The notes under the pieces were generated by a model. That model did not search any database. It worked only from the letters and a program-made list of their open reading frames with translations, and had not been told where the DNA came from. From Rhizaria sp. SCN 62-66 (lineage: Eukaryota), in contig MEDY01000125.1 in assembly GCA_001724265.1 (NCBI GenBank), positions 1 through 64,000 on the forward strand: a stretch of DNA of 64,000 nucleotides. The letters run 5' to 3'. Positions 16,101 to 64,000 of this stretch are shown here, piece after piece. The position numbers were made by a program, and so were the translations under genes. Every line of letters begins with the position of its first letter. The stretch's first letter is position 1.

Positions 16101-16207
16101 GCGTGCCAGGTCACCAGGTACTGGAACTCGGCGGCCTCGATCGCGGCGGGCGAGCAGTGCACCAGGTCAGCCGCCGTCATCTGGCCCGCGGGCGCGTTGG
16201 GGTCCAT
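10189..16207 (-). CDS. IFT139: Intraflagellar transport protein IFT139 / TTC21 (TPR protein of IFT-A), 3 exons, about 1894 aa
   Basis: Exons 16207-14912, 14729-10503 and 10350-10189; introns GTGCGT...CAG and GTACGA...CAG. TPR-like helices, QVPKARNQLKRIAK, and a C-terminus NPAVGYKLAYN...[23 protein letters not shown] matching the TTC21B C-terminus. Stop TGA. Confidence 0.9.
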
Positions 16208-17194
16208 TCGTGGCGAGGGATAAAGCAGCGCGTGCTGAGTTTACTGTGACTGGCGCTGGGGGACGATGGGGAAGCGCCCGATATGACCGTTTACAACGGG
16301 CAAGAGGCTAAAGGGGAGCGTTTAGTCGGGACAGAAACGCCTGGGGATTCGCTCTGTGCCGGCAAATGGTGCGTGCAACAGCGGTGTAAGTGGCGGCCGG
16401 GCTAAACCTGCTAGAGTCAAAGCCTGTGGGGAAGGAGCGTCGGAGGGAGAGAATTTGTGAGGGTGATATTAGACTCCAATGCGACCATGCAGAAACAGTG
16501 CCAGAAAGCAAAGAAGACGTTCGTCAACAGAGCCACCTAAAGGTTATTATATAACCCAACGACATTAAATTATATATATTTGCTTGCATTGCAATTTTGC
16601 GAAGAAACGACGGCGCAGGCAACGATCCTAAGTGGTCATTTTGAAATAACCTCGAGCTGCTGCCGACTTTTTACGAACCCTGCCTCGCCAGTCGCGCTCG
16701 CTCGTGGTTGGTGCGGCTGCTGGCCGACGAGCGACCGAGCTGTGGGGTAGTGGGGCTGGTAGAAAACCGGATGCAGGTCTGCATGTGATCACGGGTTTGC
16801 TTTGTTATATCGATGAATAATGTGTTGGTGGTGATACCAATGTGGTGTATTGATTTCTGGACTTGGCGGTGCCGGCATTGTACCGCATGGACTGGGTCTG
16901 GTGGAGAGACGTCACCGACTTGGCCAGCGGGGAAACTTGTTGGATCACACAGGGTCTGGTCACTCCTGTGGACATTGCAATTAAGGAATATGATACCATA
17001 TGGAGTTGTATACCTTATATTTGCTCTACGCCGCGCCTTAGCGAAATGGCCCCCCACTTAACGCTCTCTTTAGGACCAGGTTCATGTCCGCTGACCGAGT
17101 GCTGTGGGGTGGCGCTTGTCTTTGTCTTCTTTCCGCTGTCTCACATTCCATTGCCTTCATCCTCTTGTTTCTCGTGCATTACAGGCTTCGCAAC

Positions 17195-24627: not shown

Positions 24628-27360
24628 ATGGCTGAAGAAGAGGATCTGAACGTGAACCCGCTGTTCGAGTACCTGCAGGGCGGCAACGTGCTCGAACAGG
24701 CCGCCGCCAAGAACTACCTCGTTCTCATCCCTGCCGCAGCCTCGCTCGCGCTCTGCACCATTAACCGTGAGTTTGCCACCACGCATATCCTTGCGCGACC
24801 GAAGCCCGACGCCGCAGACCCGACAGCGCACGCCACTGTGAGCGGCAAGATCGTCCACTTGCGCGACCGCGCCTTCACCACAGGGGCTGGCTTCCCCACG
24901 CCTGCGCGCGTCTGCGCCGTCGCCTCCGAGGAGACGTACTACACCGAGAGCTTTGCGTCCTTCCAGCTCATGCGCCTCACGCTCCCGCTGCTGGGCAAGG
25001 TCTCCCCCGCGTATATGCAGTCGATCTCGGCGCAGCCGCTGAGCTCGACGCCCGTCGATCGGCGCACGCCCGCCGAGCACGAGGCAGTCCTGCGCAAGGC
25101 ACTGCCGGCCGCCGCCGCGGACCTGGCCGCCTTCCGCGCGCGCTTTGCCGCTGAGTTCCTCACCAGCTACGTTATGGTGCGCGGCTTCGAAGGCCAGACC
25201 GGCGACAAGGTCCGCAGCGCCTGCGCCAAGGCTGTGGCGGACGCCGTCGCCAAGCAGCGCGCCGCGCCCGCGTCGTCGTCCTCGGGCCCCTCCGCCGCGG
25301 CGGCCGCGCAGCAGGGCCAGGCGGCGCCGGGCGTGTTCAGCGCGGCGACGCTGGCGGAGCTGGAGGTCGCGCTCGACGCCTGTGTGCTCAGCGACATCGG
25401 CGGCAAGGTGCTGGGCACGATCCGCGAGTTCTACGCGCGCGCCGACGCGTCGCTCACTGCATTAGGCGCCACGGCACAGGTGCTGCGGCTGCCCGAGCTT
25501 CTCGCGCTGCTGGGGCTGCGGCCCGCGCTGCGTCCGGACCTCACGGCCGCGCTGGAAGCCTTTGAGGGCGTGCTGCCGGAGCAAGACGCACACTAGCACT
25601 CGCTGTCGCGGTCGCATGCGCACGCGCAAGCGCCCGTGCCGCTACAGATGCTGGGCGCGCTGGAGCGCACCGTGCGCGCGCTCACCGCCGCCTGCGAGGC
25701 CGGACCCAGCACCAGCTCCGCGACTGCGGGGGCGTCTGGATCGTCTGGGTCCACGGCGACGGCTGCCGCCGCTGCGGTGAGCGCGAGCGACCCGGTGACT
25801 GCGGACGACATGTTGCCGCTGACGGTCGCGCTTGTGCTGCACTCGAACCACGACCACCTGCACAGCCTGCTGCAGTACCTCCGCCACTTCAAGCCCCCCG
25901 CGGCGACCGCGGGGCGGCTTAACTTGTCGCACCTTGAGGTCCACCTCGTGACCTTCGAGTCGGCCGTGGCCTACGCGCGCTCCGACGCCTTCAGCGCGGC
26001 CCTGCACGCCGCGATCACCGCGCGTGCCGCCTCGGCCGCCGGCGGCGCGACAGCCGGCGCAGCGCAGTCCGCAGGCCCCGCCAGCGGCCGCTTCCGCGAG
26101 TCCGTCGGCGGCGCGGGGCACGGCGCCGGCGCCGGCAGCGGCGGCGGCGGCGGCGTCTACGGACCCGCGCTGCTCGGCGCCGGGGGCGGTGGCGGCGGCG
26201 CGTACGGCGGCGGCCACGCGCTCGCCACGTCCTCGTCCGCGTTGCACCCCGCCAGCGGTGCGATCGGCGTCAACGGAGCCAACGGCGGCGACGCGAGACG
26301 CCCGTCGCTGGCGCAAATGCAGATGCAGGCGCTGAGTGGCGGCGACGCGCGCGGCGGCGGCGGGCTCGATGCCGCGCGCGGCGGGCTCGCGCGCATCGGC
26401 TCCGCCTCCCGCATCTCGCTCTCGGGCGCCGCCAGCACGAACGGCAATATCGTCTCTGGCAGCGGCGTTAGTAGCAATGGCGGCGGAATGACGCTACGGA
26501 ACCCGGCGCTGGGCTCGGCGGGCACGCTCCCCGGCCGCCGCGCCACGGCCACCGTCGCCGCGGGGCCCGTAGTCTCGCTGGTCCGCGGCGCCGGCGGCGC
26601 CGGCGGAGCACTCCACGGCCACGGCTACGGTGCGGGCGCCGCGGGGGCGGAGAGCTCCGACGATGACTCGTCGACCGACGATCTCGGCGGGGGCGGCCAC
26701 GGCTACGGCGGCGGGCGGCACAGGCGCGCGCCATCGGGCGCGGGGACGGGAGCGCTCTCGCTGTCGCGGTTCGGTTCCTTCCACGCCTCCGACCCCGAGG
26801 ACGGCGGCGCCAACGCGCACAACAGCAACGCGGGCGTGAACGCGCATAGCGGGCTCCAACAGCACCAGCATCAGCAGCTGAGTCTGGACGCGCGCGTCGC
26901 CGCGCTGTCGCTCGCGCCCGCGGCTACGGGGGGCGCCCGCGTGCCGCCGCACTCGGCCACCCACCACGCCAGCGCCGGCGGCAATGCGCAGTCCGGGCTG
27001 CGGCCGCGCGTCAACTACGGCGAGATCGCCCGCCAGACGCGCCATGAGCTCGGGCTCGACGGCGGCGGCGGCGGCGGTGCCAACGGCGGGCTCTCTCTCC
27101 GCAACCACGGCGCCGGCGTCGCGCCGGGCAAGTACGGCACGATGCCTGCGCGCGGCCGCGGCAGCGTCAGCGGCGGGCTACCCGGCGGCGGCTTCGGGCT
27201 CGGCGCGGGCAGCCACGGCCACGGCCACGGCCCCGGCGCCGGCGCCGGCGCCGGGGGCCAGGGCGGCGCGGACGAGGCGGACCCAAACCTGGGCGCGTTC
27301 TTGTCCAGGCTCATGTCCTCGGACTCGGCGTCGGGCCGCGTCAACGAGTACAAGCGCTGA
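24628..27360 (+). CDS. VPS9-domain Rab GEF with a VARP/ANKRD27-like N-terminus, about 910 aa, one in-frame TAG (25594-25596)
   Basis: N-terminus EEDLNVNPLFEYLQ...LVLIP...SEETYY resembles VARP. The VPS9 core motif ADDMLPLTVALVLHSN lies downstream of the TAG in the same frame, and GC-rich coding composition is continuous across it. Stop TGA. Confidence 0.75.
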
Positions 27361-27682: not shown

Positions 27683-29339
27683 TCAAATGGGGAGCTGGTA
27701 GGCGAGCCCAACGCTGTCAAAGAGCGCGGGCAGCCAGAGCACTGACACGAGCCCCATGAGGAAGTAGTTGACGGCCTTGTCGCTCATCTCGACCATGTAG
27801 CGCCGCCACAGCGCCGTCGACGCGCCGAACTTGGCCGCGCTCGGTGCAGTCGCCGTTTCTGACGCGGCCGCGGTCTTGGCCTTGGCGGAGGCCTTCGCAC
27901 TTGTTTTGATCTTGTGGGAGCCCTTGGCGGCCTTGTGCGCCCGCGCCGCCACCGCGTCTAGCTCGCACGCCGCCGCCGCAGCGCTCGCACTTGACTGCGA
28001 CTCCGACTCCGACTCCGACTGCGTGTCTGCGGCTGCAGCGTCGGCGGGCGAGCTGGGCGTGACGGGCTGCGACGACGAGGGCGAGGGCGGGACGTAATCG
28101 GCGGCGTCCTCGGGGCGGCCGAACACGGCCCCGGCGAGCGCGCGCACGGGCGCCTTGAGCGAGAGGCGCATGGCGTAGATGAGCACGACGTTGGCGGCCA
28201 GGCGGCCCACGGCCAGCGCCAACTGCCAGCCGCGCGGCAGCGCCACTTGCCGGTAATGAGCCACCACACTCGCCACTCCGGCGCCCGCAGCGCCCGCGGT
28301 GGCGGCGGTGGCGGTGTGGAGGACTGGCACGGAGGGCTCTGGGGTGAGCGCGAATCCGGCCAGGATGCCGGCCGCGGTGAAGAGCACGATGACCGTGTCG
28401 CCGGGGCTGTTGGTCCAGCGCGCGCGCGGCAGCGGGTACGCGGCGGCCGCGGCGATGGCCAGCGCGACGACCGCGGCCGCGCCCAGGGGGCCCGACAGCG
28501 CGGCGGCCAGCGTGGCGCGGAAAGGCACGATGAGGAGCACGGGAAACACACCCAGCACGAAGCCGCCGACGACGTCGAGCGAGCTGTGCACGCCCAGGTA
28601 GAAGCGAGACAACGGCGTGGCAACCGCCCAGAAGAGCAGGAAGGCGATGAGCGCGGCGAAGACGGCGGCGTCGTGCACCGAGTAGAGCGTGAGCAGCAGG
28701 AACAGGAACGTCGTGGGCTGCGACGCCGCGCCCATGGTGTGCGTCGACGGGAAGCCGTACTCGGCCGCGTAGTGCGTCTCGAGGCGCGCCACGCGCGAGC
28801 CGCGCTGCAGCCCGGGCCGCGGGAGGTACAGCGAGTCCTTGAGGAACTGTCCCAGGTACATGACCACAGCCCAGAGGACGACGACGGAGAATGCCACGGA
28901 GCGGTCCACGCACGTCGCGTTGATCGTCGCCCAGGTCGCGTACCAGGCCTCGTTGCCCAACTCGGACGCCAGTGACAGCGCCGCGTCCACGAACGGATAC
29001 GGCGACCGCTGAGGGGATGTAAAAACAGAAATGTAGGGGCGTTCAGAAGAGTGGGGCATGAGTATAAGACGGATGAGAAACTGACAGTGAGCGATGCAGA
29101 TTGCATCGAGTGAGAATAAACGTGCTTGCTGACGTGCAGCAATCGCGTACCTTTGCGCCGAGGCCGGTCTTGGGGTCTGGCGCGGTGACACCGAGCGCAC
29201 GCTGGACGCCAACGACGTGGTGCTCGTTATCGAGCACGAGCGGCAGCAGCACGCCGTGTAGCCGCCGCCACACGGTGCCCTTCGCGGGCACCTCCTGCGG
29301 CGCCTGCTGAGGCGAGGCAGACAACTGGGAGACGCTCAT
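27683..29339 (-). CDS. PAP2-family lipid phosphate phosphatase, sphingosine-1-phosphate phosphatase (SGPP/Lcb3)-like, 2 exons, about 504 aa
   Basis: Exons 29339-29151 and 29008-27683; intron GTACGC...CAG. Motifs KDSLYLPRP, EYGFPSTH, SRFYLGVHSSLD and multiple hydrophobic helices. Stop TGA. Confidence 0.88.
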
Positions 29340-34595: not shown

Positions 34596-37500
34596 ATGCT
34601 GCTGCAGCGCGTGCTCTCCGCCCGCCGGCGCCCGCCCTCGGCCGACTCGGCCCTGGCGGCCCCCGCGGCGGCCGTGAACCACCAGACGGTGTGGGTGCAG
34701 GGCCGGATCACCGTCGAGCGCCTCGTACGTCGCACAAAGAAGTGCTCTCGCAATCACTCTAACGTTTCTGAATACCCGCATGATTTTTCTGGGCGCTTAC
34801 TTTGTTGCCATCCCTTCCCTACTTCATGAACTTCGCTAACCCTCCTTCTCTTGATCTCGCCCGCTCTTGATAACGGTCACAACTGCCACTGCCAACCCCA
34901 ATCTCTCGACACCGACGCGAACGCCCCCGCTCAGCGCCAGCTCTGCATGCAGACGGACCTGACGCGCGTGACGACCTTTGAAGTCCGCGTTTCGGCCGAG
35001 GAGCACAATCTCAGCGAGCTCCTTGCCCTCCTGCCGCGCCTCCAGACTCTCACGCTCGACGGGTCCAGTGTGGCTTCCTTCCGTGACCTGGGCATCGCGT
35101 CCGCGACGCTCACGCACCTCAGCCTTGCGCGCGTGGGGCTGCTCGACTTGGACGGGCTTGCGGATGCGCTGCCCAACCTCACGGACCTCAACCTGGCTGG
35201 GAACCCACTGTCGGACATCGCGCCGCTGGCCTACCACGGCACGCTCAGGAACATCAACCTGCAGGGGTACGTTTACTAAACAAGAGCTCGAAGAGCTGAT
35301 ATTATCTTCGATTTCAATATAACGCCCCTATTGTGATTTACTGCTTTATTTGAGTCATTAATTCTGTAAATTACTCCGAACTATGCTCATCTTGATGTAT
35401 ATAATCCATATCTTGGGTCATTATTATCCCAGGACCCGCGTGGCGGACTCGGACTCGCTCGACTGGCTGGCGTCGCTGCCGAGCCTGTCGCGCCTTACGC
35501 TTGCGCTGACCCCGCTGTGGACGCGGCTCTTCTACTCCCGCGTGCTGCTGGCCCGCATCACCTCGCTGACGACGCTCGACGGCCGCGCCGTGACGGCCGC
35601 CGACGCCGCAGGGTGGGGCCGGTCGCCCGCCGCCGCGCTGCCTCTGCTGCCCGCTCTCCGGGCCGCCATCGCGGACCGCGCGTGCGACCTGGTCGACGCC
35701 GGCGACGCCGAGGCTGCGCAGCTCCTCACGCTCGACGCGGTCTACTACAGCAACGATAACGGCAACGGCAGCGGCTCTCGCAAGGACCCTATGGACGTGG
35801 CGCTCAAGCTCCGCAAGGAGGCGCGCCGCAGCCGCCTCAGCAGCAACGATGACGGCGACGCTGGCGACAGCGGCGGTGTCGACGATGATGACGACGAGGA
35901 GCAGCCGTCCGGGCTGCCGGGTTGGGCGGAGCGGCTAGTGCTGCCCACCGCCGCCGCCTGGGCCGGCATCGCGCGCGAAATGTACCGCGGCGGCGGCGGT
36001 GGCGGCAGCGGCGACAACGGTGATGCTGCGCAGCAGGGGCCGGTGGAAGACGGCGTGGGCGCTGCCGCTGCCGACGCCGAGGCTGAGGCGGAGGCCGAGG
36101 CGGAGGCCGTTGCATCTCGGTCTGTGCCGCAGCAGCTACAGAAGCCTGAGCCTGCGTCTGCGCATGTGCCAGCGCCTGTGCACGCAACTGTATCCGAGCC
36201 TGAGCCGGAGACCAAGATCGAAACGAACCCCGAGCCCGTCGTCAAGCCCGAGCTCGTGGCTAAGCCGGAGCCTCAGCCTGAGCCTAAGCCTGTGTCTGCG
36301 CCTGCGCCTGAGCCTGAGCATGAGGCGTGGCACCCGCTGTCCAACCCTCCCGTGCCCGCCTCCCCAGTGCAACCCCTACATTCACAGTCAGTGCACCAGT
36401 CTCAGCCGCTGTACCAGTCGCAGTCAGTGCACCAGTCGCCGCCGTTGCAGCAGCCGCCGCAGCAGCAGCCGCAGCGCACGCCGTCGCAGCGGCAGCCCTC
36501 GGTCTCCGCGCTGCTGGCCGCCGCCTCCTCCGCCACGGACTGTACGAACAATATGGTCACTGCAGCTGGTCCTGCTGCTGCCAAGGCTGGCGAGGACGAG
36601 GACTACGACGACGGCACGGACGGCTTCGTAATCCCCTCCGCCCGCGCCGCCGCCGCCGCCGCCGCCGCCTCTGCGCTGCCCTTCAGCAGCGGCAGCCTCG
36701 GCCTGACCGCGAGCGCGGATAGCACCGCCGGCTCCGGCGGCAGTCTGCTGTCGGCGTCGTTCACGGCCTCGGTGGTGGCGTCGTCGCTTTCGGCCGGGCC
36801 GTCTCTCGCCGACGCCTCGGCCGCGCAGCGCAAGGCCTTCGAGGAGTTCCAACGCAAGAAGATGGAGGCCATGCTCGGCAAGTCCTCATCCGCGGTCGCC
36901 TCCGGTCCCAGCGGCAGCGCTGGGCTCAGTGCCAGCGGCTCCATCGGCGGCGGCGGCGGCAGTGCGGGACTGTCTCGCATCGCCACTGGCGCTGCCGCGG
37001 CCGCCGCTGCCGCCGCCGTGGCCGCGGGGCCCGCCGCCGCCGCCGCACTCATCTCCAGCTCCGGCGGCCCCGGCCTCAGCCACAGTCAGCAGATTCACAG
37101 CAGCTACAGCCAACAGCAACAGCCTGCGCCGGCGCCGGCGCCGCTGGCCGCGTCTGGCGCGATGGGCGCGCAGGCCGCGTTCATCGTCAACAGCGCAGCC
37201 GCGCGCCGCGCGCTGTCGGCCGGCACCGCCTCCGCGGTCTCCGTCACCGGCTCCGGCGCGCACGGCGCCGGCGTACAACCGAGCTCGAGTGGTTCTGGCT
37301 CTGGCGCTGGCGCGAGCTCTGCGGGGGCGCCGCGGCTGTCGAGCGCGGTGGCCGTGCGCCGCGCCGCCGTGGCCAGTCTGTCTTCCTCCGCCAACGCCAA
37401 CGCTAATAGCGGCTTCGGCCATAGTACGGGGCCGGGGGGCCCGCTGGCGAGTCTGTCGGGCACGGGCCGCCTCAGCAGCTCCAGCGTCAGCCTCGGCCCC

Positions 37501-41100: not shown

Positions 41101-43589
41101 TCACTGCATCTGCTTGCTTAAATGTGCGCGCATGCTGTTTTCGAGGGTGAACGGCGCCAGCGACGGCACGAGGGCGGTGACCAGTGCGTCGCAGACAGCG
41201 GTCTGGAACTGGCGAGCGCCCAGTGCGGTCACCCAGGGACCCAGCGCAAGCCCCCAGCTCACGCTGCCGGACTCGGCCTCCGCCACAGTGTCCTCCGTGT
41301 CCAAAACATCAGCACTGGTGTCGACGTCACCGCCGACAGCAGCAGCAGCGGCTGCGTCGACGGCGCTCCAGGGCGCGTCGCTCCACTCGCGCACGGCCAC
41401 GCGCACCACGGCCGCCACGTCGGCGCCCACGCTCGTCCCAGTCTCTGCGTTGTCAGCGGCAACAGCAGCCTTGGCGGCGGCAGAGAGGACTGAGCTCGTG
41501 CAGGCGCGGCGCACCGCGGCCGACACAGGCACCACGGCGCGGCCCCGCTCGTCGTGCTCGCGGCCGCTGTTGCTGGCGCCGTCAGCGTCGCTGCTGTACA
41601 AGGACACGGTGGCGACGACGGCAGCGCCGCCCAGCAGCACGAGACACTCGAGGCGGCGGAAGTGTTGGTATGAAATAGCTTTGCACGCGCTAGAGCTTTT
41701 GTTGCGGCCGGTGCGGGTGTGCGGAGTTGAGCCAGGACCAGCGTACGTACCGTCAGCGCGCCGCTGCGGCACTGCAGACGACAGTGCGGCCTTCGCAGAA
41801 CTCGTGAAACTGGTCGAATTATGTGCTGATATCATACAAGCCCACGCATGGTTCCAGTCCTCGTTGACAACGCGCGTCTCGCCCTGCAGCAGAGCCACCG
41901 CGGCATGCCTGCCGCCGCCCCGCATAGCAACCACGGTCGCGACCCCCGCAGCGGCGCTGCCCACCGCCGCGGCCGGGAGGAGGAGCGCTGTCGCCTCCGC
42001 GCAGCGGTTGAGCGCCTGGGCCAGCAGCGCCGCCGCGGGGGGGAAGCGCGCGGGAATCGGCCGCACCGCGGGCAGCAGCGACAGCGCCGGACGGGGCAGC
42101 GCCGGCTGGGGCAGCGCTGGCTGCGCATGGGGGACTGAGAGTAAGAACGCTCGCCAAGGCACGCGCGCGAGCACGGCGTGCGCGTCGCCGGGCAGCGCCA
42201 GCGTTACTGCGAGCGCGACGCCGCGCGGGGCTGCGGTCCACGAGGGCAGCGACTGGGCGAGCAGTGGCAGATGCCGGGACAGGGACTGTGTGAGCGAGTC
42301 AAGAAGACGCGCGCAGGCTGGTGCCGTGACGGCGACACCGTAGCTCTCGTTGTCGTTGTCGCTGGTCCTGTTGTTGTTGTCCTTGGCGTTGACGCTAGAA
42401 AGACTCTTCACATTGCCGCTGGTGGAGCCCACCGCGCCTGCAGTGGCGGTGAGCAGCGCGGCTCCAGACGTCGCACTCGTCTCAAGATCGCCCACAACAA
42501 CAAGCCCGCTGACTGTTGGTGCTGGAGCTGCGGCTGCGGGCGTGACAGCGACTGCTGTGGGTGCGCCCGCTGCGCCGCAGAGCCGGTCGTGCTTGACCAG
42601 GGCCAGGCCCACCGCGAGCGCGGCGCCGTCCACCGCCACGGTCACCGAGTCGAGCGCCAGGACCTCGGCGTCGCTGTCGCTGCTGGAGCACGCGGCCGCG
42701 GCGCCATGGCTGTGGTCACTGTGGGAATCGCTGTCACTGGCACTGATGCCACCGCCACTAATCAAAGCGTCACCACGGTTCGCCTTGATAGATGCTTGAG
42801 CAGCCTTGGCCGAGTCCCTGAGAGACTTTGCAGCAGCCTTGGCATCAGCCTGCTTTGCGGCGTGCGACGCCGCGCGCGCTGCTTTGAACGGTGCAAGAGA
42901 GTACTCGACCTCCAGAGCGCGGTTACGAGATCCGGACCGCTTGATATTCTGCCCACGCCTACGACGATCATTATGCTGCGCAGTATCGTCATCGCTGTCG
43001 CTCTCAACCTCGTCGCGAACATTGCTCTTGCTCGCAGACTTCCTGCTTTCCTCATTACTTAACTGATCAGGCGCCAGAACGCGGCGCGAACGCGCAACAG
43101 TGTCGGCGATGGCGACTGCTGTCGCTGCGCAAGCTAGCGCGCCGCTCGCAGGCCGCAGCGTCGCCGCAGTCACGTCGTCGCCAGTCAAACAGCCCACAGC
43201 CTCAGACAACGACGATGGCGCCAACGACGGCGAGTGCAGTGCAGTTGCGAGAGACTGCGAGCGCGAGAATGAGCGCAGCCACGCGAGCGCGCGGTCCGCC
43301 TCGATCCCCACAGCATTCGTCGGCGGTGAGCGGGCAAGATCGGCTGCGGCGGCGCTTTGCAGCGACGAGCGTAGGTGGGAGCGTGAAATGAAGTGTGGGA
43401 CCAGCAATAGGGCCAGGTCCAGCGAGAGGGGCCTCGGGGCCACGGGAGAGAACTGAGTGTGGCACATGCAAGACGAAGGAAAACGCAGTATAGACAGGTG
43501 AGCAAGTGATCTCAAATTAGCGCAAGAAAAAAAAAAAGAGTTAACTTGTCACATAGGACTTGACAGTCACGTACCTCGGGATGGTCCAT
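41101..43589 (-). CDS. Hypothetical Ala/Ser-rich protein, probably 2 exons, about 788 aa
   Basis: Long minus-strand ORF ending TGA at 41101. A micro-exon MDHPE (43589-43575) plus intron 43574-43453 (GTACGT...CAG) joins in frame. No domain recognised. Confidence 0.6.
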
Positions 43590-43822
43590 TTCCTGCACAA
43601 GGCGCAATTGCACCCAGTCGTTACCCCAATCAGAAAACGAATCGCAACCCTGGTGAGAGGTCGAATGCTCTTGGCTAGTCCTTACAGCATGCGACAGAGA
43701 CTGAAAGTGAAAAACGGAAACCTCATCCAAATCACTAAAAATAGAAAAATTCATAAAACAATCATGAAATAAATGTAAGAAATTATAATAATTAATTAAC
43801 TTTCAAAAATCAGTCTGATAAA

Positions 43823-45058
43823 TCAAAAACTTGCGAATACATCTTTTAAAATGTGAAAGACGTACCGGTATGTCGCCCTCTCTCGCACGAGTGCGCGCAA
43901 CAGGCCCCCGCCAAGCCGCTGCGTCGCGCATGCCAGTACAAAAGCCAATGCTGCAACTGTCGCCAGGCGCACCAAGAGCAGGAGAGTTGCAGCTGACTCA
44001 GGAGAGAGCACCGCGACGTCGCTGCTGCCATTTTTGGCTTGTATCAGCTGCGCGTACGAAATGCCCTCGCTCGCTTCAGATGTGCTGCCGACAACGCCAA
44101 CAAGCAGTGCAAACGCGCTCGCAGCGGCCCTACGCGGAGGCATCGTGAGCAGCAGAGTGATAATCGAAAGGACTGCAAGCGGCAGCCGGGCGCGCGGCAT
44201 CAGCAGCAACATCCTGCTCCCGGCCTCGGTCGCGACCACCAGCACGGACAGCAGCGTAGCCAGCCAGCGCCGCTGCCTCACAGCACGCGCGAGTGCCACG
44301 TACGCGCGCTCTAAGAGCCATGTAACGTTAATTTTCTGAGCAGGCGTGTCCGTCTTCCTTTGTGCATCATCGTAACTGTTGTCCACAGCATTGTTTGCCA
44401 TGTGAAACGCGATAGTTTTGCCGTCCGTCCACCGCAGCAGCCCTGTCGCGCTGGACTTAGCGCAGACAGACCCAATCATAAGAGCGACGGTTACTATGAG
44501 CGCAAGCTTGCGCACGAGCGCCCCCATGGCGGCCGCAGCAACGGTGACTGCGGGATCGGACGAAGCGACTGTGAGCAGCATAGCGGTGACCGTGAGCGCG
44601 GCGATGGTGGGCAGCAGCGGCAACAGCGTCCCCGCAGTGTCGCTAAGACCAAGTCCGTCGTGTGCAAAAGCGGCGCGGCGAATTAGCGCACAGAAAGAAG
44701 CGAAAGCTACGACACATACGGCAGCAGTGAATGCTGGATCAATCACCGAAAATATATATGACAGCACCGCAACCTTGACAAAAGGACTGAACAGCAAACC
44801 ACATAGCGCAAACAATGCAATGGTAATGGTTGCAAGTGCGCGTGTCGATGACCAGCGCGAATGTGCGACCGCAGAGGTCCGGGAGAGCGAGACTTGCGTT
44901 GCAGCGGGAAGCTAGCGCAAACAGAGCAGAAGCGGTATAACGGCTAGGAAATACAGGAATGACGTGGCATAGACGTTAAACGGCGCGAGATCGTCAAGCC
45001 AGAAGCGGGCACATACACTATCAAGCGTAGCCAGCAACGCGCGCGTCGGCGAGCTCAT
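43823..45058 (-). CDS. Hypothetical polytopic membrane protein, about 411 aa, one in-frame TAG (44912-44914)
   Basis: From ATG 45058 the frame reads MSSPTRALL...FLAVIPLLLCLR*LPAATQV... and runs into the 330-aa hydrophobic ORF with only one TAG. Stop TGA at 43823. Confidence 0.6.
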
Positions 45059-46361
45059 GGCGTGTGGCACTACGTGCGAAAGGTTGAAGGAGGCGAAGGG
45101 GTCACTCAGATTAAGTGAGATTTACTCGCCTTTCTCGTTTTCTTGACTGGAAATAACACAATATTTCAATATTATAGGTAAACTTAAAACAGAATCAAGA
45201 AAGTAAAGTGAATGAGAATACGGACTCACGTTGAAATCTAGAATGAAGTAATGTCATGCCTACTTTCTCAACGGCTCTTAAAAAAACGTTGATTTCCTTA
45301 TCTATCGCAGCAATTTGATCGTTAATGCATGTATATATTCGCTGAAATACAATTAATAGAGCAACACATTGAAATCCATGATTATATTTGTGATCAGTTC
45401 CAAATCACGTCAGTTGATTCATATTTGGGAAAATTGCTAGCACAGTTGTATGGAGAGAAGAGTCGTCGAACGAGACATAGAGAAAACGCATTACATGAAG
45501 ATATAACGCGCGTCAAATCACGCAGAAAACACGCTTTCCAACAACACCAGCAACGGCCTTTCGATGTTTTGAAACGCGGGGGCGCTCACAGGCGCACTCG
45601 GCGCGCGCGCGCGCTGGCCTCGCAGGCGCAGCTCCAACCTCACATCACTGTAGTCTGCTGGGGACGGGTGAACGGCGGTGAGGCTGGAGCTGTGCGCGGA
45701 GGCGGCGGGGGCGGCGGCGGGGGCGGTGGCGATGAAGATTATGATTGCGATGAAAAAAATAGCACAAGGACAGTCCGGTATAAAGACAGACTGATGGGCT
45801 CGGGTTTGCATAGCATAGCGTAGCTTCGCATAGCTTGATTCATCGAGAAATGTGTTTGAGAGACAGATTGGGAAACAACGGGGGTTGCAGGCGACCGGCA
45901 ACAAAGGTGACGCAGCGCGGGGGGAGGCTGACGGCACCGCTGTTGCAGGTCTGCCGCAAGAGACAGACAGAAAGAAAGACAGACAGAGCTTTGCGTTCTG
46001 TGTGAGTGCATCTGAGTGAGTGCATGTGTGTCAGTGTGTAAGAACAACACAGATACACGCAGCCAGACACTGTGAGACGTTACAAGCAGAAACAACAAAG
46101 AAGATGAGACAATACAAAACAAAACAAAAAACGGTTACCCTAGGTAGAAAATACGCGGCTTACGTTACAGATGATTCTAGTTTAGCTTCGCACGCACGCG
46201 CTTGTACGCGCGCGTGAGTTTACATTATAGGCAGTCGGTACAGAGGGGCCTTCTCACCGGTGCGCCGCTAAACACCCGCTTCGCTCGACCGCGCACTCTA
46301 CATTAACGTGCGTGCACACACACAGTGGCCTCTGTAGTCTGTACGAAGACGCGTGGCGGGC

Positions 46362-49283
46362 TTAGAGGTAAAAGGGCATGGGCATGAGCGCCGGGACGAG
46401 GCTGTTGGTGCCCCAGGCGCCGTCGACGTCGCGCTCGCCGCCCGTGGCCGCATACTTGCCCGCGTAGTAGCGCGCGCGGTAGGCAAGCAGGTGCGCGTAG
46501 TACACGGGCGCGGGCAGCGAGACGGCCCGCGAAGCGCGCTGGTGCAGATGCGAGAGGTAGAAGACGAGCTCTTGCGCGGCGTCCATGTCGTACGCGGTAC
46601 CGTTGTAGATGACCTGGTACAGACAAGGACGCGACGTGCCCTTGAGCCCCGCGTGGCCGAAAAGGAAGAACTCGTTCAGGTCCGGCCGCACGACCTCGGT
46701 GTCGACCACGGTGCCCGACTGCAGGTTCCCCGACTTGTCGATCGCGTCGCTGCTGATGCCGCTGAAGCGGACGTGGTGGCGCTTAACCGCCGTGAGCGCG
46801 AGCAGCTGCGGCACATACCCCGGCTTGACTTCCTCGGCCGCGGCCAGGATGGCGGCGACCTCGCTCTCGATCACAGCCAGCACCTGCCGGTCCGAGACGC
46901 CGTCGCGCAGGTACACGATCTGCGCGGGCGGCGTCGTCGTCTTGGTGAAGCGCATGTACTCCAGGATGAAGTACTTGGCCGCGCGCTTGGCGTTGGCGAA
47001 CGGCACGCACTCCTCGCGTGAGCCCTGTTGCTGAACCACGCCGCCGTACTGCGTCGCGGCGGCGTCGTGCGAGCCGACGAAGGCGCTGTGCGAGCGACGG
47101 CCCGCCGCGGGGTCATGATAAACGTCTGCCCCCAACACCAGCGTCGGCTTCGCCCTCAGCACCGCGGGCAGCGAGTCTGGCGCGTGATGGTTCACGCCGC
47201 CCAGCTTCGCGTTGACTTTGAGCAGCACGTTGAGGAAGTACCCCGGGGTGGCCTTCTTGGGGTTGGTGATCTTGGCGGCGTCAAAGCACTGCGATGGTGA
47301 GCCCAACCGCAGCTCGCACTCGCGCTTGAGCACAGCGTACGCCGGGTCCGCGGCGTTGACAAAGCCGAACACGAAGTCGGGCCGCTCCGCGGGCGCGAGC
47401 TAGGCGAGCTTCTGCAGCTCCGCTTCGACCTACGCGGCGCTGCGGCAGTCGATCTTGCGCCTGGGACGCGCGATGGTGACGCCGACGTCTTTGCCGATCG
47501 CGACGAGCTGGTCGATGGCGTCCTTGATGTGCTCGTCGCGCACGCGGGAGCTGGCGCAGATGATGATCGGGGCGCGGATCGGGCGCATGGCGGCCGTGTT
47601 GGCAAACTTGTGCCCCGCGGGGCTCCACACGCCGGGGCCCATCACGCGCGGAGCCGTGTTGCCGAACATCTTGACAACGGGCGGCGGCAACACGCGAGCC
47701 GGCACCGAGAGCACCTGGTCGCTCACAAGCACGCCCTCGGCCTTCAGCGCGGGCGCCGCGGCCAGCGAGGCGGCGTGCTTGCGCGCCATCTCGATGCGCA
47801 CGGCGGGCGCCATGCACGTGAGGTCGACCAGCGCGGTGCGCTGGCGCGTCGACAGCTCGGGTGTGACGCGCTGGCCCTCAAGCACGCGCAGGACCTCGAG
47901 CGGCAGCACCACGTCGCGCTTGCCCGCCACCACGGCCACCGGCAGCGCGCGGTTCGACACCGAGCCCGGGTACGTCTGCTTGAAGTAATCGAACACGGAG
48001 ATGCGCGCGCCCTCGGGCGTGGTGATCTTGTGCTCGCCGCTCGCCGCGCCCAGGCGCTCCAGCGTGTAGCGGCGGCGGATCTTGTGCGTCGTCTCGACGC
48101 GGAGCCCGCGGACCTTCTCGCCCGCCACGTGCGGCGGCACGCGCGCGATGTCGGCCGTTAATTTCAGGTCGAGCGAGTCGGCGAGATACTTAGTCAGTGC
48201 AACGGGCGCGATCATGTCCATGGTCGTAGTGTCGACGTTGAGCATGAGTCCGCGCGCGCCGACGCGGGGCGCCTGTAACAGCCCCTGCAGCAGCACGGCG
48301 CCCTGCCCCAGCGCGGGCATGTCGGCCAGCTTAGCCAGGTCGAAGAGGCTCGGCCCGTTGGTCAGTGGCTGCTTGTACCCGCGCCGCAGCCCCGCGCGGA
48401 CCACCGTCTCCAGCGCCTGCACCGCCGTTGACGGGTACTGCAGCGCGGCGGCCGCGGCTACAGAGGCGGCGGCCGCGGCTACGGAGGCGGCGGCCTGTCG
48501 CTTGGCGCCGCCGGCGCCGCCGGCCGCCAGACGCGCGACCTGCTCGGCGTAGTCAGTCAGCTCGGTGAGCGAGAGCGTGCCAGTGTGCCGCAGCGTCACG
48601 CGCACGTGGAACTTGCACGGCGCCGCGGAGGCGTCGACGGCGCCGTCCTCGGGGGACTGCTCGGGAGACGCGGCGGGCGCTGCAGCGGCGGCAGCGGCAG
48701 CAGCGGCGGCAGGCTCAGGCGCAGCCGAGGCGTGGCCCCCACGGGAAGCAGGAGCGCCGCCGCGGCCGCCGCGGCCGCCGCGACCGCCGCGACCGCCGCG
48801 ACCGCCGCGACCGCCGCGACCGCCGCGACCGCCGCCGTCAGCGCCAGCGGCAACGTCAGCAGCCTCCGCAGCGGCAGTGGCAGTGGCAGTGGCAGTGGCG
48901 GCGAGCGCGGCGTCCATCCTGGAAACGACGGGGGCCCTCCTGGCGACGAGGGTGGACGCCTCGTCTTCGCGCTGCTGCATGCCGATGAATTTCGGGTCAC
49001 GGATAAACACCACAACGTCCTTGTTGTCGGCGTCCAGCTGCGTAAACGAGTACGCAAGCTGCGTGCCGTCAAAGCATAGCCCCGCGGCGGCGGGCATCGC
49101 CTTCTGCAGGTCGGCGACGAGAGTGTGTCGCACCAGCGCGTTGTGCACTGGGGGGTCGAAGTGCACCGCGTATGAGTGTAGCGGCTTCACGTTCTTGAGC
49201 ACAACGGAAACCAAGTTTGATTGAACAGTGATTATGCGGCCCTTCGTGCCTGGAGGCAAGCGGGCCGCGAGCGTGAGGCTCAT
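46362..49283 (-). CDS. AGO: Argonaute protein (N-PAZ-MID-PIWI), about 973 aa, two in-frame TAG codons (47430-47432 and 47400-47402)
   Basis: N-terminal GTKGRIITVQSN; PAZ ISVFDYFKQTY...LPLEV; MID/PIWI SQC, LKVNAKLGGVN, GADVYH, LRDGVS, VKRHHVRF, GTVVD, GTSRP, PAPVYYAHL. Track ORFs 47430-49391 and 46362-47372 share one frame and are separated only by the two TAGs. Stop TAA. Confidence 0.92.
48757..48837 (-). repeat. 9-bp tandem repeat encoding (GGR)8, an RGG box in the Argonaute
   Basis: Units ccgccgcga / ccgccgcgg on the + strand; translation GGGRGGRGGRGGRGGRGGRGGRGGRGG. Confidence 0.9.
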
Positions 49284-49950
49284 GGTAAGAGTGAAAAGCT
49301 GAGTTGACGGAGGAAGAACATGGCCAAAGGGGGATGAGGTAAAAGAATGGAACAATGTGGAAGAATAGCACGATACTAAGATGTCACTCAAACATATAAT
49401 GAAGATTAATATTTTTTGTCTCGGAATTCTCGAATGAAAATGCCAATTTGCGGCATTGTGACGCGTGAATGCTCGCGTTGATGGGCGGTCAACTCAAAGT
49501 GGTCAAAAATCGTTTGTTGAGGCTACAAAGTCGTTTGTGGCTACAAATGCATTTTCGTAGATATCTATGTAGATCTGCTTTTATCGAGAGTATACGGTCA
49601 AACTATATCATTTATGCGATGTTTTGTATGTTATATCTGTGTGATGCCCCATAGACTTGCTATTGTGATGACGTAACGTCTTCCAAACACAACAGTAATT
49701 GCCTATCTAACTTAGGTGATGCAAAACTGGTCTACTCGAGTAACAATCGCGGTCAAACAAAGTACATCCTCGCCGATCATTTCCGGGTGGCTAGTCAACA
49801 ACTTGAAACAGTCCCATTCTGGTCTATAAATGCAACGTCAGCAATGATCAAACTTGAAGCTCACGTTACCGACAATCGCTGATGTCAGCAGTCAGTCCAC
49901 AAGCCAAGCCGTGCCACATCAAAGCCTGGGTGAAGAGTGACCCAATGCGC

Positions 49951-50421
49951 TTACTTGTAGAGGTCCGCGTTCTTGACCTTGCACCAGCCGCCGTCGTCGC
50001 GGCGCATCGGCATGTCACCCACCTTGTCGGCCACACTGTCGATGTTGTTGGCCGCAGCCGTGCTGGGCGCCTAGTCGGCCGACTCCGTGGCGCCCTTGAC
50101 CGCCTGTTGCGCGCGGTCCGCGGCGGCCTTGGTGTCGATCATGCTGCCCTCATCGAAGTGCTGCATGACGCGCGCGTCGTTGGAGCGGTCCGTCACGCGG
50201 TTGCCCTCGGCGGACTTGATGCGGGTGTTGCCCTCGCAGTTGAGCGCGCTCGCAGCCTCGGACTTGTGGTCGTCCGACGCCGGCGCGCCAGGGGTGTGGT
50301 TCGAGACGTGGTTGAACAGCTCAACGCTCATGCGGTGCGATGAGTCCGTGCCGTCGCTAGCGGAGCCATGCTTGGACATGTTGCCGTCGCGCTCGATGGC
50401 CTTGGGGGCATTTTCGGACAT
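49951..50421 (-). CDS. Small hypothetical protein, about 156 aa if the TAG at 50071-50073 is read through; possible HNH-like motif
   Basis: ATG at 50421. GC3-rich codons continue for 39 codons past the TAG (APSTAAANNIDSVADKVGDMPMRRDDGGWCKVKNADLYK) to TAA at 49951. Confidence 0.65.
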
Positions 50422-60068: not shown

Positions 60069-63000
60069 TCAGAGATGATCGTCAAACTGCGCGAACCCGC
60101 CCTTGTGAACGGCACCGCCGCCGCCGCCGCCCGCCGCGTAGAGCGCGTACGGGTCGTCATCGAGGTCGGTGTCCGTCGCACCGCCGCCGCCGCCGCCGCC
60201 GCCGCCGTTGAAGCGCTGATGCTGCTTGCGCGCGTGCTGCTGCTGCAACTGCTGCTGAGACAGGCCCTTGCCCGCGCCCGCCGCCGCAGCCTTGCCAGCC
60301 GCGCCTGCAGCATCAGCCGCGCCCGCGCTCGAGCCAGCGCCCGCACTGCCGGCCGCGGCCGCGGGCGCCGTGCCGACGGCGACCTTGGCGGGCGCGCGGC
60401 GCGTCTGCTCGGCCAGGTCGCGGCGGTAGCGGAAGACTTCGGTCAGCACGGCCGTAATCATGCCCGTCACCGAGGCGATGGGGAAGCGGTAGTAGTTGCT
60501 CTGCTGCAGCGCGAGGTCCATGTGGCCACGCGTGCGGTTGCCGCCGTCGACGACGCCGAAGGTGTAGCCGAAGTACAGCCCACCCATTAGCGCGGCAAAG
60601 CACATGAAGCGCATCTCGTCCAGCGAGTGCGAGAATGGCATCTCGGTGCCGGCACCGGCCTTGAGCACGCGCGACAGCGCCAGCGGCGAGCCCGCGGCCG
60701 CAGCGGCGCGTGAGCGGGACGTGGCGAGCCGGCGGGAGGACGCGGAGGCGAAGGCCGAGGGGGCGGTGGGGGCCGAATACCAGCGCGAGCGCGCCGCGGC
60801 GTCGGCGTCCTGCTCGAGCGCGGCGGTGCGGATTTTGTAGATGAGGCGCTGTGACACGTAGCCGATCTCGAGCGCGACGAAGACGATGCAGAAGGACAAC
60901 GAGCCGGCGAGCAGGAAGAAGGTGGGGATGCGCAGCGCCGTGGCCAGCGTCAGCAGCGGGACGTGGTGCAGCGACATGCACAGCGCGCTCGCCAGCGTCA
61001 GCGCCACGGAGAAGAGCGTCAGGATGGCCGTCAGCGTGCAGCAGCCGGTGCGGCGCAGCTCGCGCGCCGTGATGGCCGGCACGGGCGCGGCGGGCACGAG
61101 CGAGCGCGCGCCGCCGCCCGGGGAGCGCACGACCTGCATCGGCACCGCCGAGCCGCGCGGGACGCCCTCCAGCGCACCGGTCATCGCGCCCGCTGCGGGG
61201 ACGGCGTCGAGCGCGGCGAGCGCGGAGGGCGGCGCGGCGGGGTCGTACAGCGAAGACAGCCCGATACGCGCCTTGTGGCCGCGAGAGGCCTTGCCACCGC
61301 CGCCGTGGCCGTGGCCGAGCAGCCCGGCCTCCTCGCGGCCGGCCGCGGCCGTGGACGCGGCGTAGCCGGCGTAGTCGTCGTCGTCGTCGTCCGAGCCCGA
61401 GGCGGCGTCCAGGTCGCGGAAGAAGGGGATGTGGTCGCGCGAGCCCGCGGCGCGCGAGGCCGCGGCGGCGAGCTGCATGCGCCGCACAACGCCGCGGCTC
61501 CAGGCGACAAAGACGCCGATGATGAGGTAGAGTAGCGCGAAGACGTAGGAGAACTGGCGCGAGAGCGTGACTTCGACGAGGACGTTGTTGATGCACACGG
61601 CGATGCAGATAGAGCAGAGCGCGCCCACGCACGCGTTGTGCACGCACGAGGTGAGGAAGATGACCCAGCCGGGCAACTCGTGTGCGTGCTTGGTCGCGTA
61701 GTGCTTGACGACGTAGGTGGTGAAGAAGCCGATGATGAGGAGCCCAAAGAAGAAGTCCCACACCAGGTACGCGTCGCCGTCGAGCGGGCACTCCTCGGCG
61801 TGCACGACGATCGAGTCAACGTCAGGGCAGATTGAAAACCACGGGTCGTCTTCGTCGGTCTCGGTCGCGCTCGTGGTGCCCTCGCCGCCGCCGCCGCCGC
61901 TGCCGCCGCCGCCGCCCGCGCCGCCGGAGCCGGAGCCCGAGACGGAGCCTGTGACGGTGCTCTTGACGGTGCTGATGAGGCTGGCCACGCCGGACGACAC
62001 CATGCCGCCCGCGCCGCCGCCGCTCTTGCCGCTGCCGCTGCCGCTGCCGTTCTTGCCGCCAGCCGCGCCGCCGTGGTCACTGTTGCCAGAGCCAGCGCCG
62101 GCGCCCGCAGCGGCAATGCCACCGGCGCCCGCGCCCTTGCCAGCGCCAGCGCCAACGCCAGCGGTGTCGCTCCTGCCGGCGCCCTTGCCTTCGCCGCTGT
62201 CGCCGCCCGCCGCGCCGGCGACGGCGGCCGAGTCGGCGCCTGCGCCCGCGCCCGCGCCCGCGCCGGGCTTGGCAGGCTTGCCATTGGCGCCTGTGGGGGT
62301 CTTGAGCTTGTTCGCCTTGCCCTTGTGGCGGCCGAAGTTGGCGATCGTATCCGCGTCGGGCTCCGTCTCGGGCACGCCCGCAGCGGCGGCCTTGGCGGCG
62401 GCCGCGGCCGCGTTAGTCGCCGCCGCCGCCTTGGCCGCAGCAGCCTCGCCCTCAGCAGCAGCAGCAGGAGTGCCGCTGCCCGCGTGGCCGCCGCTCGCGT
62501 TGGTGGCGTCGCGGGCCTCGATCTGCGTAGCCATCTCGGCGAAGACGGAGAAGAGGTGCCGGTCGAGCCCCATGCCAAACTCCATGCCCATGCGGTGCGG
62601 GCGACGCATCGCGCGGTACGTCGCCGCGGCCGCCGCAGAGCCCACTAGCGCGCCCGGGATGCAGCGCCGCGTCGACGGGCACCAGCGGCAGTCGTGCGCG
62701 GCCGACACGCACGCGCCGCAGCCCTTGGCCGAGGCCAGCACGCAGGTCCGAGCCGAGAGCGTCGTGTCGACAATGCAGCTGGGACCGAAAAAACCCGGGT
62801 CGCACTTATCCTGCGCGCGCGCCACCGCCGTGCTGCCGCCGCGGGCGCCGGCGGCGGAGCCCGCGCTGGCACCCGCGGCGCTCGCGTCGGCGCCCGCGGC
62901 CGCGGCCTCAACCGCGGCGTCGGTCCCGCTGGCGAGCACCACGCCCGCCGCGGCGGCGTCGGTGCCCGCGGCCGCACTGCCCGCCGTCGCCGTCGTGTCC

Positions 63001-64000
63001 ACGGGCGTCAGCAGCTCCACAGCGGCCGCCACGGAGGCGGGCGTCGGGCCCTCAGCGGCGGCCGCGGCGGCCACGGCGGCCGCGTCGGCCTCGGCCTTGC
63101 TCTCGCGGACCGGCGCAGTCGGCAACACCTGTGTTGAAGTAAATAAGACAAGTTACGAAAAAAACAAAAAGGCGAAATGAGATAAAACCAGTCGATAAAC
63201 AAGAAAGTAGCAGAATTGAAGCCAACAATGATCTCGAGTTTGTTTCTGCTTCTGCTTTTGCTTCTGCTGATGTCGTACCTGACTGTAGAAAGTAATGCCG
63301 TTGGCCGCGGCGGCGGTGACGGCGGCGGGCACTGGCTGCTGGGTCCGCTCGAAGTACCAGTCGCAGAGGCGCATGTGGTCGGCGCTGCGCGCGTCGGTGG
63401 CTGCGGTGAAGCCGACGAGGTACTCCCCGCGGAGCGCGAGCACGCGCGCCTGCAGCAGCGGCGTGGTGAGGTCGTTGAGGAAGACCGACACGACGCCCTC
63501 GTGGTAGTCGATCTGCACGACGTTGACCGGCGTGGCCGACCCCGAGGCCGCCTGCGCGCCCGTGCGGGAGGCGAACGAGTCGACCACGCGCGACCGCGCG
63601 CGGGGGGACAGCCGCGGCAGCGACTTGGAGATGGCCGTGGCCGTCGCGTTGGCCGGGATCACGAGATCCGGCATCACCGTCAGCGACGCCGCGGCCACAG
63701 TCGCCGCCGCCGCCGCCGCGGCCTCGGCAGCCGTCGGGGGCGCGCTGCTGGCCGCGCCCGCGCTGCCGTTGAGCGCGAGCAGGCTCGGACCAGCAGCAGG
63801 GGACGTCGCGGCAGCATCGGCAGCATCAGCAGGAGCAGAAGAGCCCTCGTCACCGGCGCTGCTGGCATTGGCGCTAGCAGTACCGGTACCCGTGCCTTTG
63901 CGATTCTTCTTCTCAGTCGCGGCCGTCACTGCTGCGGCCACGGCCGTGACCGCGGCCTGCGCGGCCGAGTCGGCGGCGGCGACTGCGGCGGCGGCGGCCT
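60069..64000 (-). CDS. Membrane protein with L-type-lectin-like, EGF-like and PSI-like segments and a multi-pass C-terminal domain (5' end outside the window)
   Basis: Exons >64000-63279 and 63128-60069; intron 63278-63129 (GTACGA...CAG). VQIDY...VSVFLNDLTTPLL...VGFTAAT...DWYF (legume-lectin-like), CDPGFFGPSC (EGF-like), CGACV...CRWCPSTRRC (PSI-like), and about seven hydrophobic segments. Stop TGA. Confidence 0.75.

Follow-up and report, generated by a model that had tools for sequence, protein, structure and literature searches.

In-frame TAG codons in an intact Argonaute gene suggest that a probable rhizarian from wastewater translates UAG as a sense codon

Introduction

Few departures from the standard code are known in nuclear genomes, and even fewer give UAG and UAA different meanings. 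Such a departure is one possible reading of a locus on contig MEDY01000125.1, part of a metagenome assembly (GCA_001724265.1) filed under Rhizaria sp. SCN 62-66. We analyzed positions 1 to 64,000 of this contig, hereafter the window. Its minus strand carries an Argonaute gene that is interrupted by two TAG codons in the region of the MID domain and otherwise appears intact. Are these TAGs sequencing errors, parts of a small intron, the marks of a decaying gene, leaky stop codons, or codons for an amino acid? An original prediction for this locus favored recoding. Our analysis leads to the same reading: with a probability of about 0.8, the organism translates TAG as a sense codon. Recoding is the best-supported explanation because two more genes of the window also contain an in-frame TAG and none of the 21 window genes ends in TAG.

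Results

An Argonaute Gene With Two In-Frame TAG Codons Is Otherwise Intact

The presence of in-frame TAGs within an intact Argonaute gene is confirmed. The minus-strand sequence that had been quoted for positions 47370-47460, with two TAGs spaced ten codons apart, matches the window exactly. Both TAGs (Table 1) are in frame and are the only interruptions of a stop-to-stop frame that spans 46362-49493 on this strand. Codons of the coding sequence (CDS) are numbered from the Met at 49283, and apart from the two TAGs the frame is open from there to a TAA.

Pfam matches follow one another along the protein in the order ArgoN, ArgoL1, PAZ, ArgoL2 and Piwi; those to PAZ and Piwi lie above the curated Pfam cut-offs, and those to ArgoN, L1 and L2 lie below theirs. 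The TAG pair falls between L2 and Piwi, i.e., in the MID region, where the original prediction had put it. MID itself was placed through alignment to homologues bearing PF16487 and through a fold model, and the domain order of the AGO clade (N, L1, PAZ, L2, MID, PIWI) is present in the protein. The match to human AGO1 and AGO2 is a single stretch that covers CDS residues 281-945 and passes through both TAGs (E = 1.4e-80 for AGO1). Among the 120 matches listed, the nearest Argonaute relatives are 42-55% identical, and the alignment with homologues likewise runs across both TAGs, with polar columns at both sites.

The PIWI domain encoded beyond the TAGs had been said to retain all its motifs, and GADV, REEC, RDG and YYAH are indeed present. 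In an alignment of 12 AGOs (A1), columns D790, E828 and D864 never vary and H1001 hardly does; by reference to human AGO2, we take these to be the catalytic Asp-Glu-Asp-His tetrad. Five further columns that are invariant in A1 (Y719, K723, Q735, K759 and K763) are kept in the window protein, all of them downstream of both TAGs, and presumably form the MID pocket for the 5' phosphate of the guide. Every column invariant across the 12 aligned AGOs is retained in the window Argonaute.

Between the two TAGs, a VE..L..L motif is conserved across the 120 homologues. An AlphaFold2 model of this region (m59fa3f45f2c8) has a mean predicted local distance difference test score (pLDDT) of 86.3, with values of 94-96 at the TAG segment, and predicts a helix at residues 127-138. 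Both TAGs had been said to appear on the polar face of an amphipathic helix. The helix is modelled with confidence; the first TAG (residue 129) lies inside it, in the first turn, and the second (residue 139) lies one residue past its end. The polar face itself is read from helical periodicity and from polar homologue residues, not from coordinates.

The window Argonaute has the domain order of human AGO1 and AGO2, Arabidopsis AGO10 and KpAGO and keeps the columns that are conserved in MID and PIWI. To these shared features it adds an N-terminal Gly-Arg (RGG) block, Ala-rich insertions and the two TAGs in MID. The best explanation of this sequence is a working gene, in which ribosomes would read through both TAGs to the TAA at 46362.

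Four AGO-like records of run X6 (records 10, 11, 13, and 14) align at 47164-47342 and 48108-48373, outside 47351-47632; the contigs of runs X7 and X8 also lie outside this last interval. The X6 records differ from the window at approximately 5-15% of positions, with about half of the listed differences synonymous. Their source is a sister strain or species, or a paralogue, and X6 contains the same strain as well. A metagenome scan for relatives returned the identical locus L001, after which the next relative is 47% identical.

TAG Is Absent From Gene Ends and Nearly Absent From Genes

The 21 window genes end in TGA (11) or TAA (10), and none ends in TAG. Of the 1384 stop-type trinucleotides in the non-coding DNA, 299 are TAG; at this frequency, the chance of no TAG among 21 gene ends is P = 0.006, or P = 0.010 when two weak gene ends are left out (19 genes). 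Within genes, four in-frame TAGs occur in 15,349 codons and are spread over three of the 21 genes: two in the Argonaute gene and one each in a gene with a VPS9 domain and a small orphan open reading frame (ORF). The same codons contain no in-frame TAA or TGA, and the three TAG-bearing genes have no other defect.

Composition distinguishes these TAGs from gene ends. Window genes carry a clear signature, with a GC content at third codon positions (GC3) of 0.8-0.95 and a higher GC content at first than at second positions. Same-frame GC3 stays at 0.87-0.92 after the four in-frame TAGs, but averages 0.49 and reaches at most 0.67 past the 21 accepted terminators. In a six-frame scan by codon score, coding sequence was found on both sides of three of 626 TAGs, none of 671 TAAs and none of 1538 TGAs; the three are the two Argonaute sites and the orphan site, with the VPS9 site under the threshold. 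A second scan by GC3 only found the signature on both sides of four TAGs, no TAAs and two TGAs. Its TAGs include the first Argonaute site, the VPS9 site, and the orphan site; the second Argonaute TAG failed the rule that no stop may lie upstream.

A number of other sites and calls were set aside. The GC3 scan also listed four TAGs that resemble terminators, each of which was rejected when inspected. The TAG at 29259 (plus strand) ends a 42-codon ORF antisense to the PAP2 gene and that at 58117 (minus strand) ends a 34-codon antisense ORF. The TAG at 2790 (minus strand) ends an 86-codon ORF with a GC3 of 0.67, where a small gene may nonetheless end. The TAG at 600 (minus strand) ends a Leu/Arg-rich antisense shadow of a Gln-rich gene that itself ends in TGA at 2023. 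This gene (1-2025, plus strand) encodes a long, low-complexity protein rich in Gln, Ala, Gly, and Pro and is open at the start of the window; its shadow is a 476-codon ORF. Lastly, ARAGORN called a tRNA-Arg(GCG) at 12719-12804 (plus strand), antisense inside the IFT139 gene; it has no Rfam match at the gathering score and is probably a false call.

Two Further Genes Each Contain One In-Frame TAG

The VPS9-domain gene is conserved on both sides of its TAG. At least seven homologues cross residue 323, the TAG site, in single stretches (e.g., P0249 over 6-452 and P0256 over 5-451), and in alignment A3 conserved blocks flank the site. A C-terminal motif shared with homologues lies over 580 codons beyond the TAG, and GC3 is 0.85 before the TAG and 0.90 after it. 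A 322-residue protein in public collections (P0243, on record from six contigs) matches residues 1-322 at 100% identity.

The orphan ORF lies just upstream of the Argonaute gene. Before the TAG, the GC content at its three codon positions is 0.60/0.49/0.91; over the 39 codons after the TAG it is 0.59/0.46/0.90, and past the TAA it becomes 0.57/0.50/0.47. Its only database match is to its own truncated call of 116 residues (P0371, on record from three contigs), and it has no Pfam match. Both P0243 and P0371 are stumps that end exactly at the TAG, artefacts of gene callers that apply the standard or the bacterial code. The Argonaute gene would likewise come out split or labelled a pseudogene, from which a loss of RNA interference (RNAi) would be falsely inferred.

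Table 1. Positions of the Argonaute gene, its domains and TAG codons, and the two other TAG-bearing genes in the window.
Feature	Position	Strand	Description
Argonaute CDS	46362-49283	-	973 codons; TAA at 46362-46364; no intron detected
First in-frame TAG	47430-47432	-	Frame codon 688, CDS codon 618; first turn of MID helix
Second in-frame TAG	47400-47402	-	Frame codon 698, CDS codon 628; short variable loop, one residue past helix end
MID helix (model residues 127-138) with VE..L..L motif	47403-47438	-	AlphaFold2 and homologue alignments
PIWI domain	46467-47366	-	Pfam Piwi, 2.2e-67; downstream of both TAGs
PAZ domain	47829-48122	-	Pfam PAZ, 5.2e-12
L2 match	47670-47762	-	Pfam
Gly-Arg (RGG) repeat block	48756-48836	-	N-terminal part of Argonaute, from sequence; contigs of other runs break here
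VPS9-domain gene	24628-27360	+	One in-frame TAG, TGA end; Pfam VPS9, 1.6e-07, downstream of TAG
TAG of VPS9-domain gene	25594-25596	+	Lineage-specific loop (alignment A3)
Small orphan ORF	49951-50421	-	Just upstream of Argonaute; Met 50421, TAG 50071-50073, TAA 49951-49953

Sense Decoding Compared With Other Explanations

Several observations weigh against reassignment. The sample is 64 kb of DNA sequence alone with four TAG codons, all four of which stand at unconserved positions where none pins the decoded residue to a single one. Neither ARAGORN nor Rfam, at the gathering score, detected a tRNA with anticodon CUA in the 64-kb window, and the coding case for the orphan ORF comes from composition alone. 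At a GC3 of approximately 90%, TAG is also the nonsense codon most easily reached by a single mutation, its one-step sources CAG, GAG, AAG, TCG, TGG, and TAC all being abundant among the window codons; because TAG is the most accessible by mutation, the fact that all four nonsense codons are TAG is weak evidence by itself. Two TGAs and one extra TAG were flagged by the GC3-only scan as well, and these three were set aside as antisense shadows by inspection, with no blind rule: the TAG at 13843 (plus strand) is antisense to the Pfam-supported IFT139 gene, the TGA at 55527 (minus strand) to an ORF of 2227 codons, and the TGA at 42136 (plus strand) to ORF815, with another stop close by. Finally, if four codons were placed at random in 15,349, two would fall within ten codons of each other with P = 0.0077, a clustering that reassignment does not explain. 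The Argonaute pair may go back to a single local mutation event, or slow or limited translation may have been selected for where MID and PIWI meet.

The rival that survives best, which we nevertheless regard as unlikely, is that UAG is leaky or unassigned. UAG would be poorly recognized by the release factor and read at low efficiency by near-cognate tRNAs (e.g., Gln-CUG, Tyr, or Lys), with no dedicated tRNA. TAG would then be tolerated rarely, in weakly expressed genes or at unconstrained sites, and the Argonaute pair would strongly throttle output. The window data would fit such leakiness and true reassignment alike: TAG accounts for only four of 15,349 codons, at unconserved positions, tRNA-CUA was not found within the window, and a lack of TAG gene ends is also expected of a poor terminator. 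However, two TAGs ten codons apart would multiply low efficiencies, yet PIWI shows no decay, and 64 kb is far too small a sample for the tRNA gene to be expected in it.

Somewhat less probable again is that the organism uses the standard code and that the three genes are young pseudogenes or nonsense alleles, with RNAi in the process of being lost. RNAi genes are commonly lost among protists, and this frequency lends the idea some plausibility, as does the accessibility of TAG under the codon usage of the window. A fixed pseudogene would likewise recur across assemblies. The signal of constraint is also weak in the AGO-like contigs of X6, in which synonymous and non-synonymous codon differences stand at 7:6, 4:4, and 5:4 (partial lists). 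Decay would nonetheless require four nonsense changes spread over three of 21 genes, without a single frameshift, TAA or TGA in 15,349 codons, and would leave the lack of TAG among the 21 terminators (P = 0.006) unaccounted for. By the time a second nonsense codon arose in the Argonaute gene, many other changes should have accompanied it, yet the columns invariant among the 12 AGOs are kept; the VPS9-domain gene, similarly, keeps its C-terminal motif far beyond the TAG.

The TAGs are real rather than assembly errors. A record from another study (X4 record 1, 3138 nt) spans 45800-48672 and differs from the window only at 47127 and 48276, neither of them in a TAG. X4 and X5 carry an RNA-Seq label but are flagged as probable DNA, and none of the runs listed is recorded as RNA; we use X4 for its DNA sequence alone. 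Over 42752-47947, the window also agrees with locus L001 of a second metagenome assembly at every one of 5196 bases. Five runs, drawn from three studies, contain 0.97-1.00 of the words sampled from 46900-47900; as many as three of them could be where the window comes from, and we therefore count only X4, and possibly L001, as independent support. That the TAGs stem from faulty sequencing or assembly, or from a rare strain variant, is thus very improbable, since both TAGs recur in X4 record 1 and L001 and the words of the TAG region recur across the runs. In favor of this idea stand the origin of the window in a metagenome assembly and its disagreement at 47127 with all four compared runs.

At that position, the window has T and all four compared runs have A. 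The change is synonymous (GCA/GCT, Ala) and represents a private variant or an assembly error.

Least probable of these four rivals, at the edge of what we would consider, is that the TAG segment is spliced out as a small intron in MID. Spliceosomal introns do occur in the window (e.g., the AT-rich intron near 63133-63270), the IFT139 gene is divided between frames, and GT and AG dinucleotides are present around the TAG site. However, the obvious candidate (GTAGGT...CCTAG) is 34 nt long and breaks the frame, as the original prediction had noted, and all 31 of the 31 in-frame GT..AG candidates that cover both TAGs would remove at least 27 residues aligned with homologues. The TAG segment has a GC content of 75% and a GC3 of 0.92, compared with 32-46% GC for the real intron, which has a GTACGA donor and a T-rich tract. 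The helix between the TAGs, with its conserved VE..L..L motif and pLDDT of 94-96, would also be lost. The intron reading fails, therefore, on composition as well as homology.

Two other ideas were dropped: adenosine-to-inosine editing of UAG to UGG, for which the only structure beside the TAGs is a 5-bp hairpin (GAGCT/AGCTC; judged by eye) and whose ADAR enzymes are not known outside animals, and insertion of pyrrolysine, which is not known outside archaea and bacteria.

A Polar Residue Is Favored at the TAG Sites

If TAG is a sense codon, the homologues favor a polar residue. In 120 homologues, the column of the first Argonaute TAG contains Q26, N26, D23, S10, R9, G7, T5, E4, and P4 as the nine commonest residues, none of them hydrophobic, and that of the second contains K19, S13, T12, A11, N11, R10, Q9, L6, and E5. 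The first site is occupied by D, E, and D in the three closest relatives, and in human AGO1 the two sites are S and N. The VPS9 and orphan TAGs also lie in polar, probably disordered stretches. Leu would fit the Argonaute columns poorly.

Gln is the leading candidate because TAG is one transition from CAG, which occurs 555 times among the codons of the window genes. The suggestion in the original prediction that the sites suit Gln is compatible with these columns, but four unconserved sites do not prove it. Our rough division of the probability gives Gln a little under half, Glu about a fifth, and other residues together about a third. If TAG encodes Gln, it would make up 0.65% of the Gln codons. 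Translation of UAG as Gln with UAA retained as a stop corresponds to NCBI table 15.

The Source Organism Is Probably a Rhizarian

The window sequence is present in bioreactor and wastewater metagenome runs of several studies from 2015 to 2025. Its CDC48 protein is 73-74% identical to those of Lotharella and Amorphochlora and to a cluster that includes Bigelowiella, the nearest named organisms, and 75% identical to an entry labelled as a euglenid transcriptome. These best matches indicate that the organism is probably a rhizarian. A trypanosomatid origin, which the RGG block and the intronless ORF might evoke, was rejected: no trypanosomatid is among the 120 Argonaute matches listed, the best named CDC48 matches are rhizarian, and introns are present in the window.

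The gene content comprises importin-alpha, an EF2/Snu114-like GTPase, IFT139/TTC21, the V-ATPase c subunit, a thiolase, CDC48, a PAP2 protein, a PROPPIN, an MCT-1-like PUA protein, and several long ORFs without a Pfam match. The IFT139/TTC21 gene (10189-16240, minus strand) is broken into three or more pieces that lie in different frames (14870-16240, 10386-15143, and a terminal exon at 10189-10656). This split points to introns, although the overlap at 14870-15143 may be a frameshift. The end of the IFT139 ORF at 10386 is not coding-like and the true last exon ends with TGA at 10191, which leaves the terminator count unchanged. The intron near 63133-63270 (minus strand; GC 0.32-0.46, GTACGA donor, T-rich tract, CAG acceptor) joins the ORFs at 63153-63998 and 60069-63152, and the TAA at 63153 is intronic. 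Just upstream of ORF870, at 34830-35279 (plus strand), a 149-codon ORF resembling leucine-rich repeat proteins has a coding composition and a TAA end; it could be a gene in its own right or supply the first exon of ORF870.

Discussion

Our preferred model is that TAG is a sense codon in this organism and that translation terminates solely at TAA and TGA. Ribosomes would insert an amino acid at both Argonaute TAGs and go on translating MID and PIWI until they reach the TAA at 46362. Such decoding would involve a dedicated tRNA with anticodon CUA, which would pair with UAG and not with UAA, and a release factor eRF1 with weakened recognition of UAG. The rarity of TAG and its unconserved sites suggest either that the reassignment is young or that decoding is inefficient.

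A fuller and more tentative account, which we consider possible but doubtful as a whole, is that a GC-rich rhizarian from wastewater uses a previously undescribed code at a very early stage, in which UAG would encode Gln or Glu and account for approximately 0.03% of codons, at unconstrained sites alone, and in which the TAG pair of the Argonaute gene would act as a throttle that ties RNAi to the supply of the UAG-reading tRNA. Reassignment of UAG in a further lineage would provide an independent data point, perhaps the second in Rhizaria and with a different meaning. The near-absence of TAG from genes bears directly on how stop codons are captured, whether through disappearance of the codon or through an ambiguous intermediate.

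The comparisons that follow hold for parts of two reports, Panek et al. (2017; PMC5304391) and McGowan et al. (2024; PMC11687900). Reassignment of UAG alone is already a known kind of departure, with about eight lineages in which UAG and UAA differ in meaning (McGowan et al., 2024), and the pairing of a tRNA-CUA that reads UAG and not UAA with an eRF1 weakened in UAG recognition is established logic for it (Panek et al., 2017). Beyond the ciliate study, we found no paper in which UAG is reassigned in a cercozoan from wastewater or in a comparable metagenome-assembled genome (MAG) of a eukaryote, in a search that left subscription journals mostly outside its scope.

The closest case by lineage is exLh, a sainouroid rhizarian (Sainouroidea) in which UAG encodes Leu: 384 UAGs stand in frame across 71 genes, most of them where Leu is conserved, and the only terminators are UAA (56) and UGA (15) (Panek et al., 2017). 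Like the window organism, exLh is uncultured and known only from sequence; it belongs to Rhizaria, the group that best matches suggest for the window, and has UAG alone as a sense codon, as we propose here. In contrast, the window holds four TAGs in about 15,300 codons, and these occupy unconserved polar positions to which Leu is a poor fit. There is no sign in the sequence that the two belong to the same lineage, because the CDC48 of the window is 70% identical to that of the sainouroid Guttulinopsis and thus no closer to it than to the chlorarachniophytes (73-74%).

By meaning, the closest cases are those in which UAG encodes Gln and UAA remains a stop, i.e., the fornicate Iotanema spirale (Panek et al., 2017) and the ciliates Protocruzia tuzeti, Hartmannula sinica, and Trochilia petrani (Panek et al., 2017; McGowan et al., 2024). 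These share the code architecture proposed for the window organism, where Gln is the leading candidate, and in Iotanema the share of UAG is also low, at about 8% of Gln codons (Panek et al., 2017). They are, however, a fornicate and ciliates, and the share that we calculate for the window is roughly ten times lower than in Iotanema.

By type of data, the nearest parallels are Scotinosphaera, in which UAG encodes Ser, and the phyllopharyngean ciliates, in which UAG was reassigned once to Leu and twice to Gln, with tRNA-CUA genes in two MAGs (McGowan et al., 2024). In these cases, as in the window, in-frame UAGs were seen in metagenome-assembled eukaryotic sequence and UAA is a preferred terminator, but they comprise hundreds of sites at conserved positions and include cognate suppressor tRNAs in two MAGs, compared with four unconserved sites here. 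The window organism would be a further case of UAG-only reassignment, one that differs from the known UAG codes in its lineage, its high GC content, its probable meaning and the rarity of TAG.

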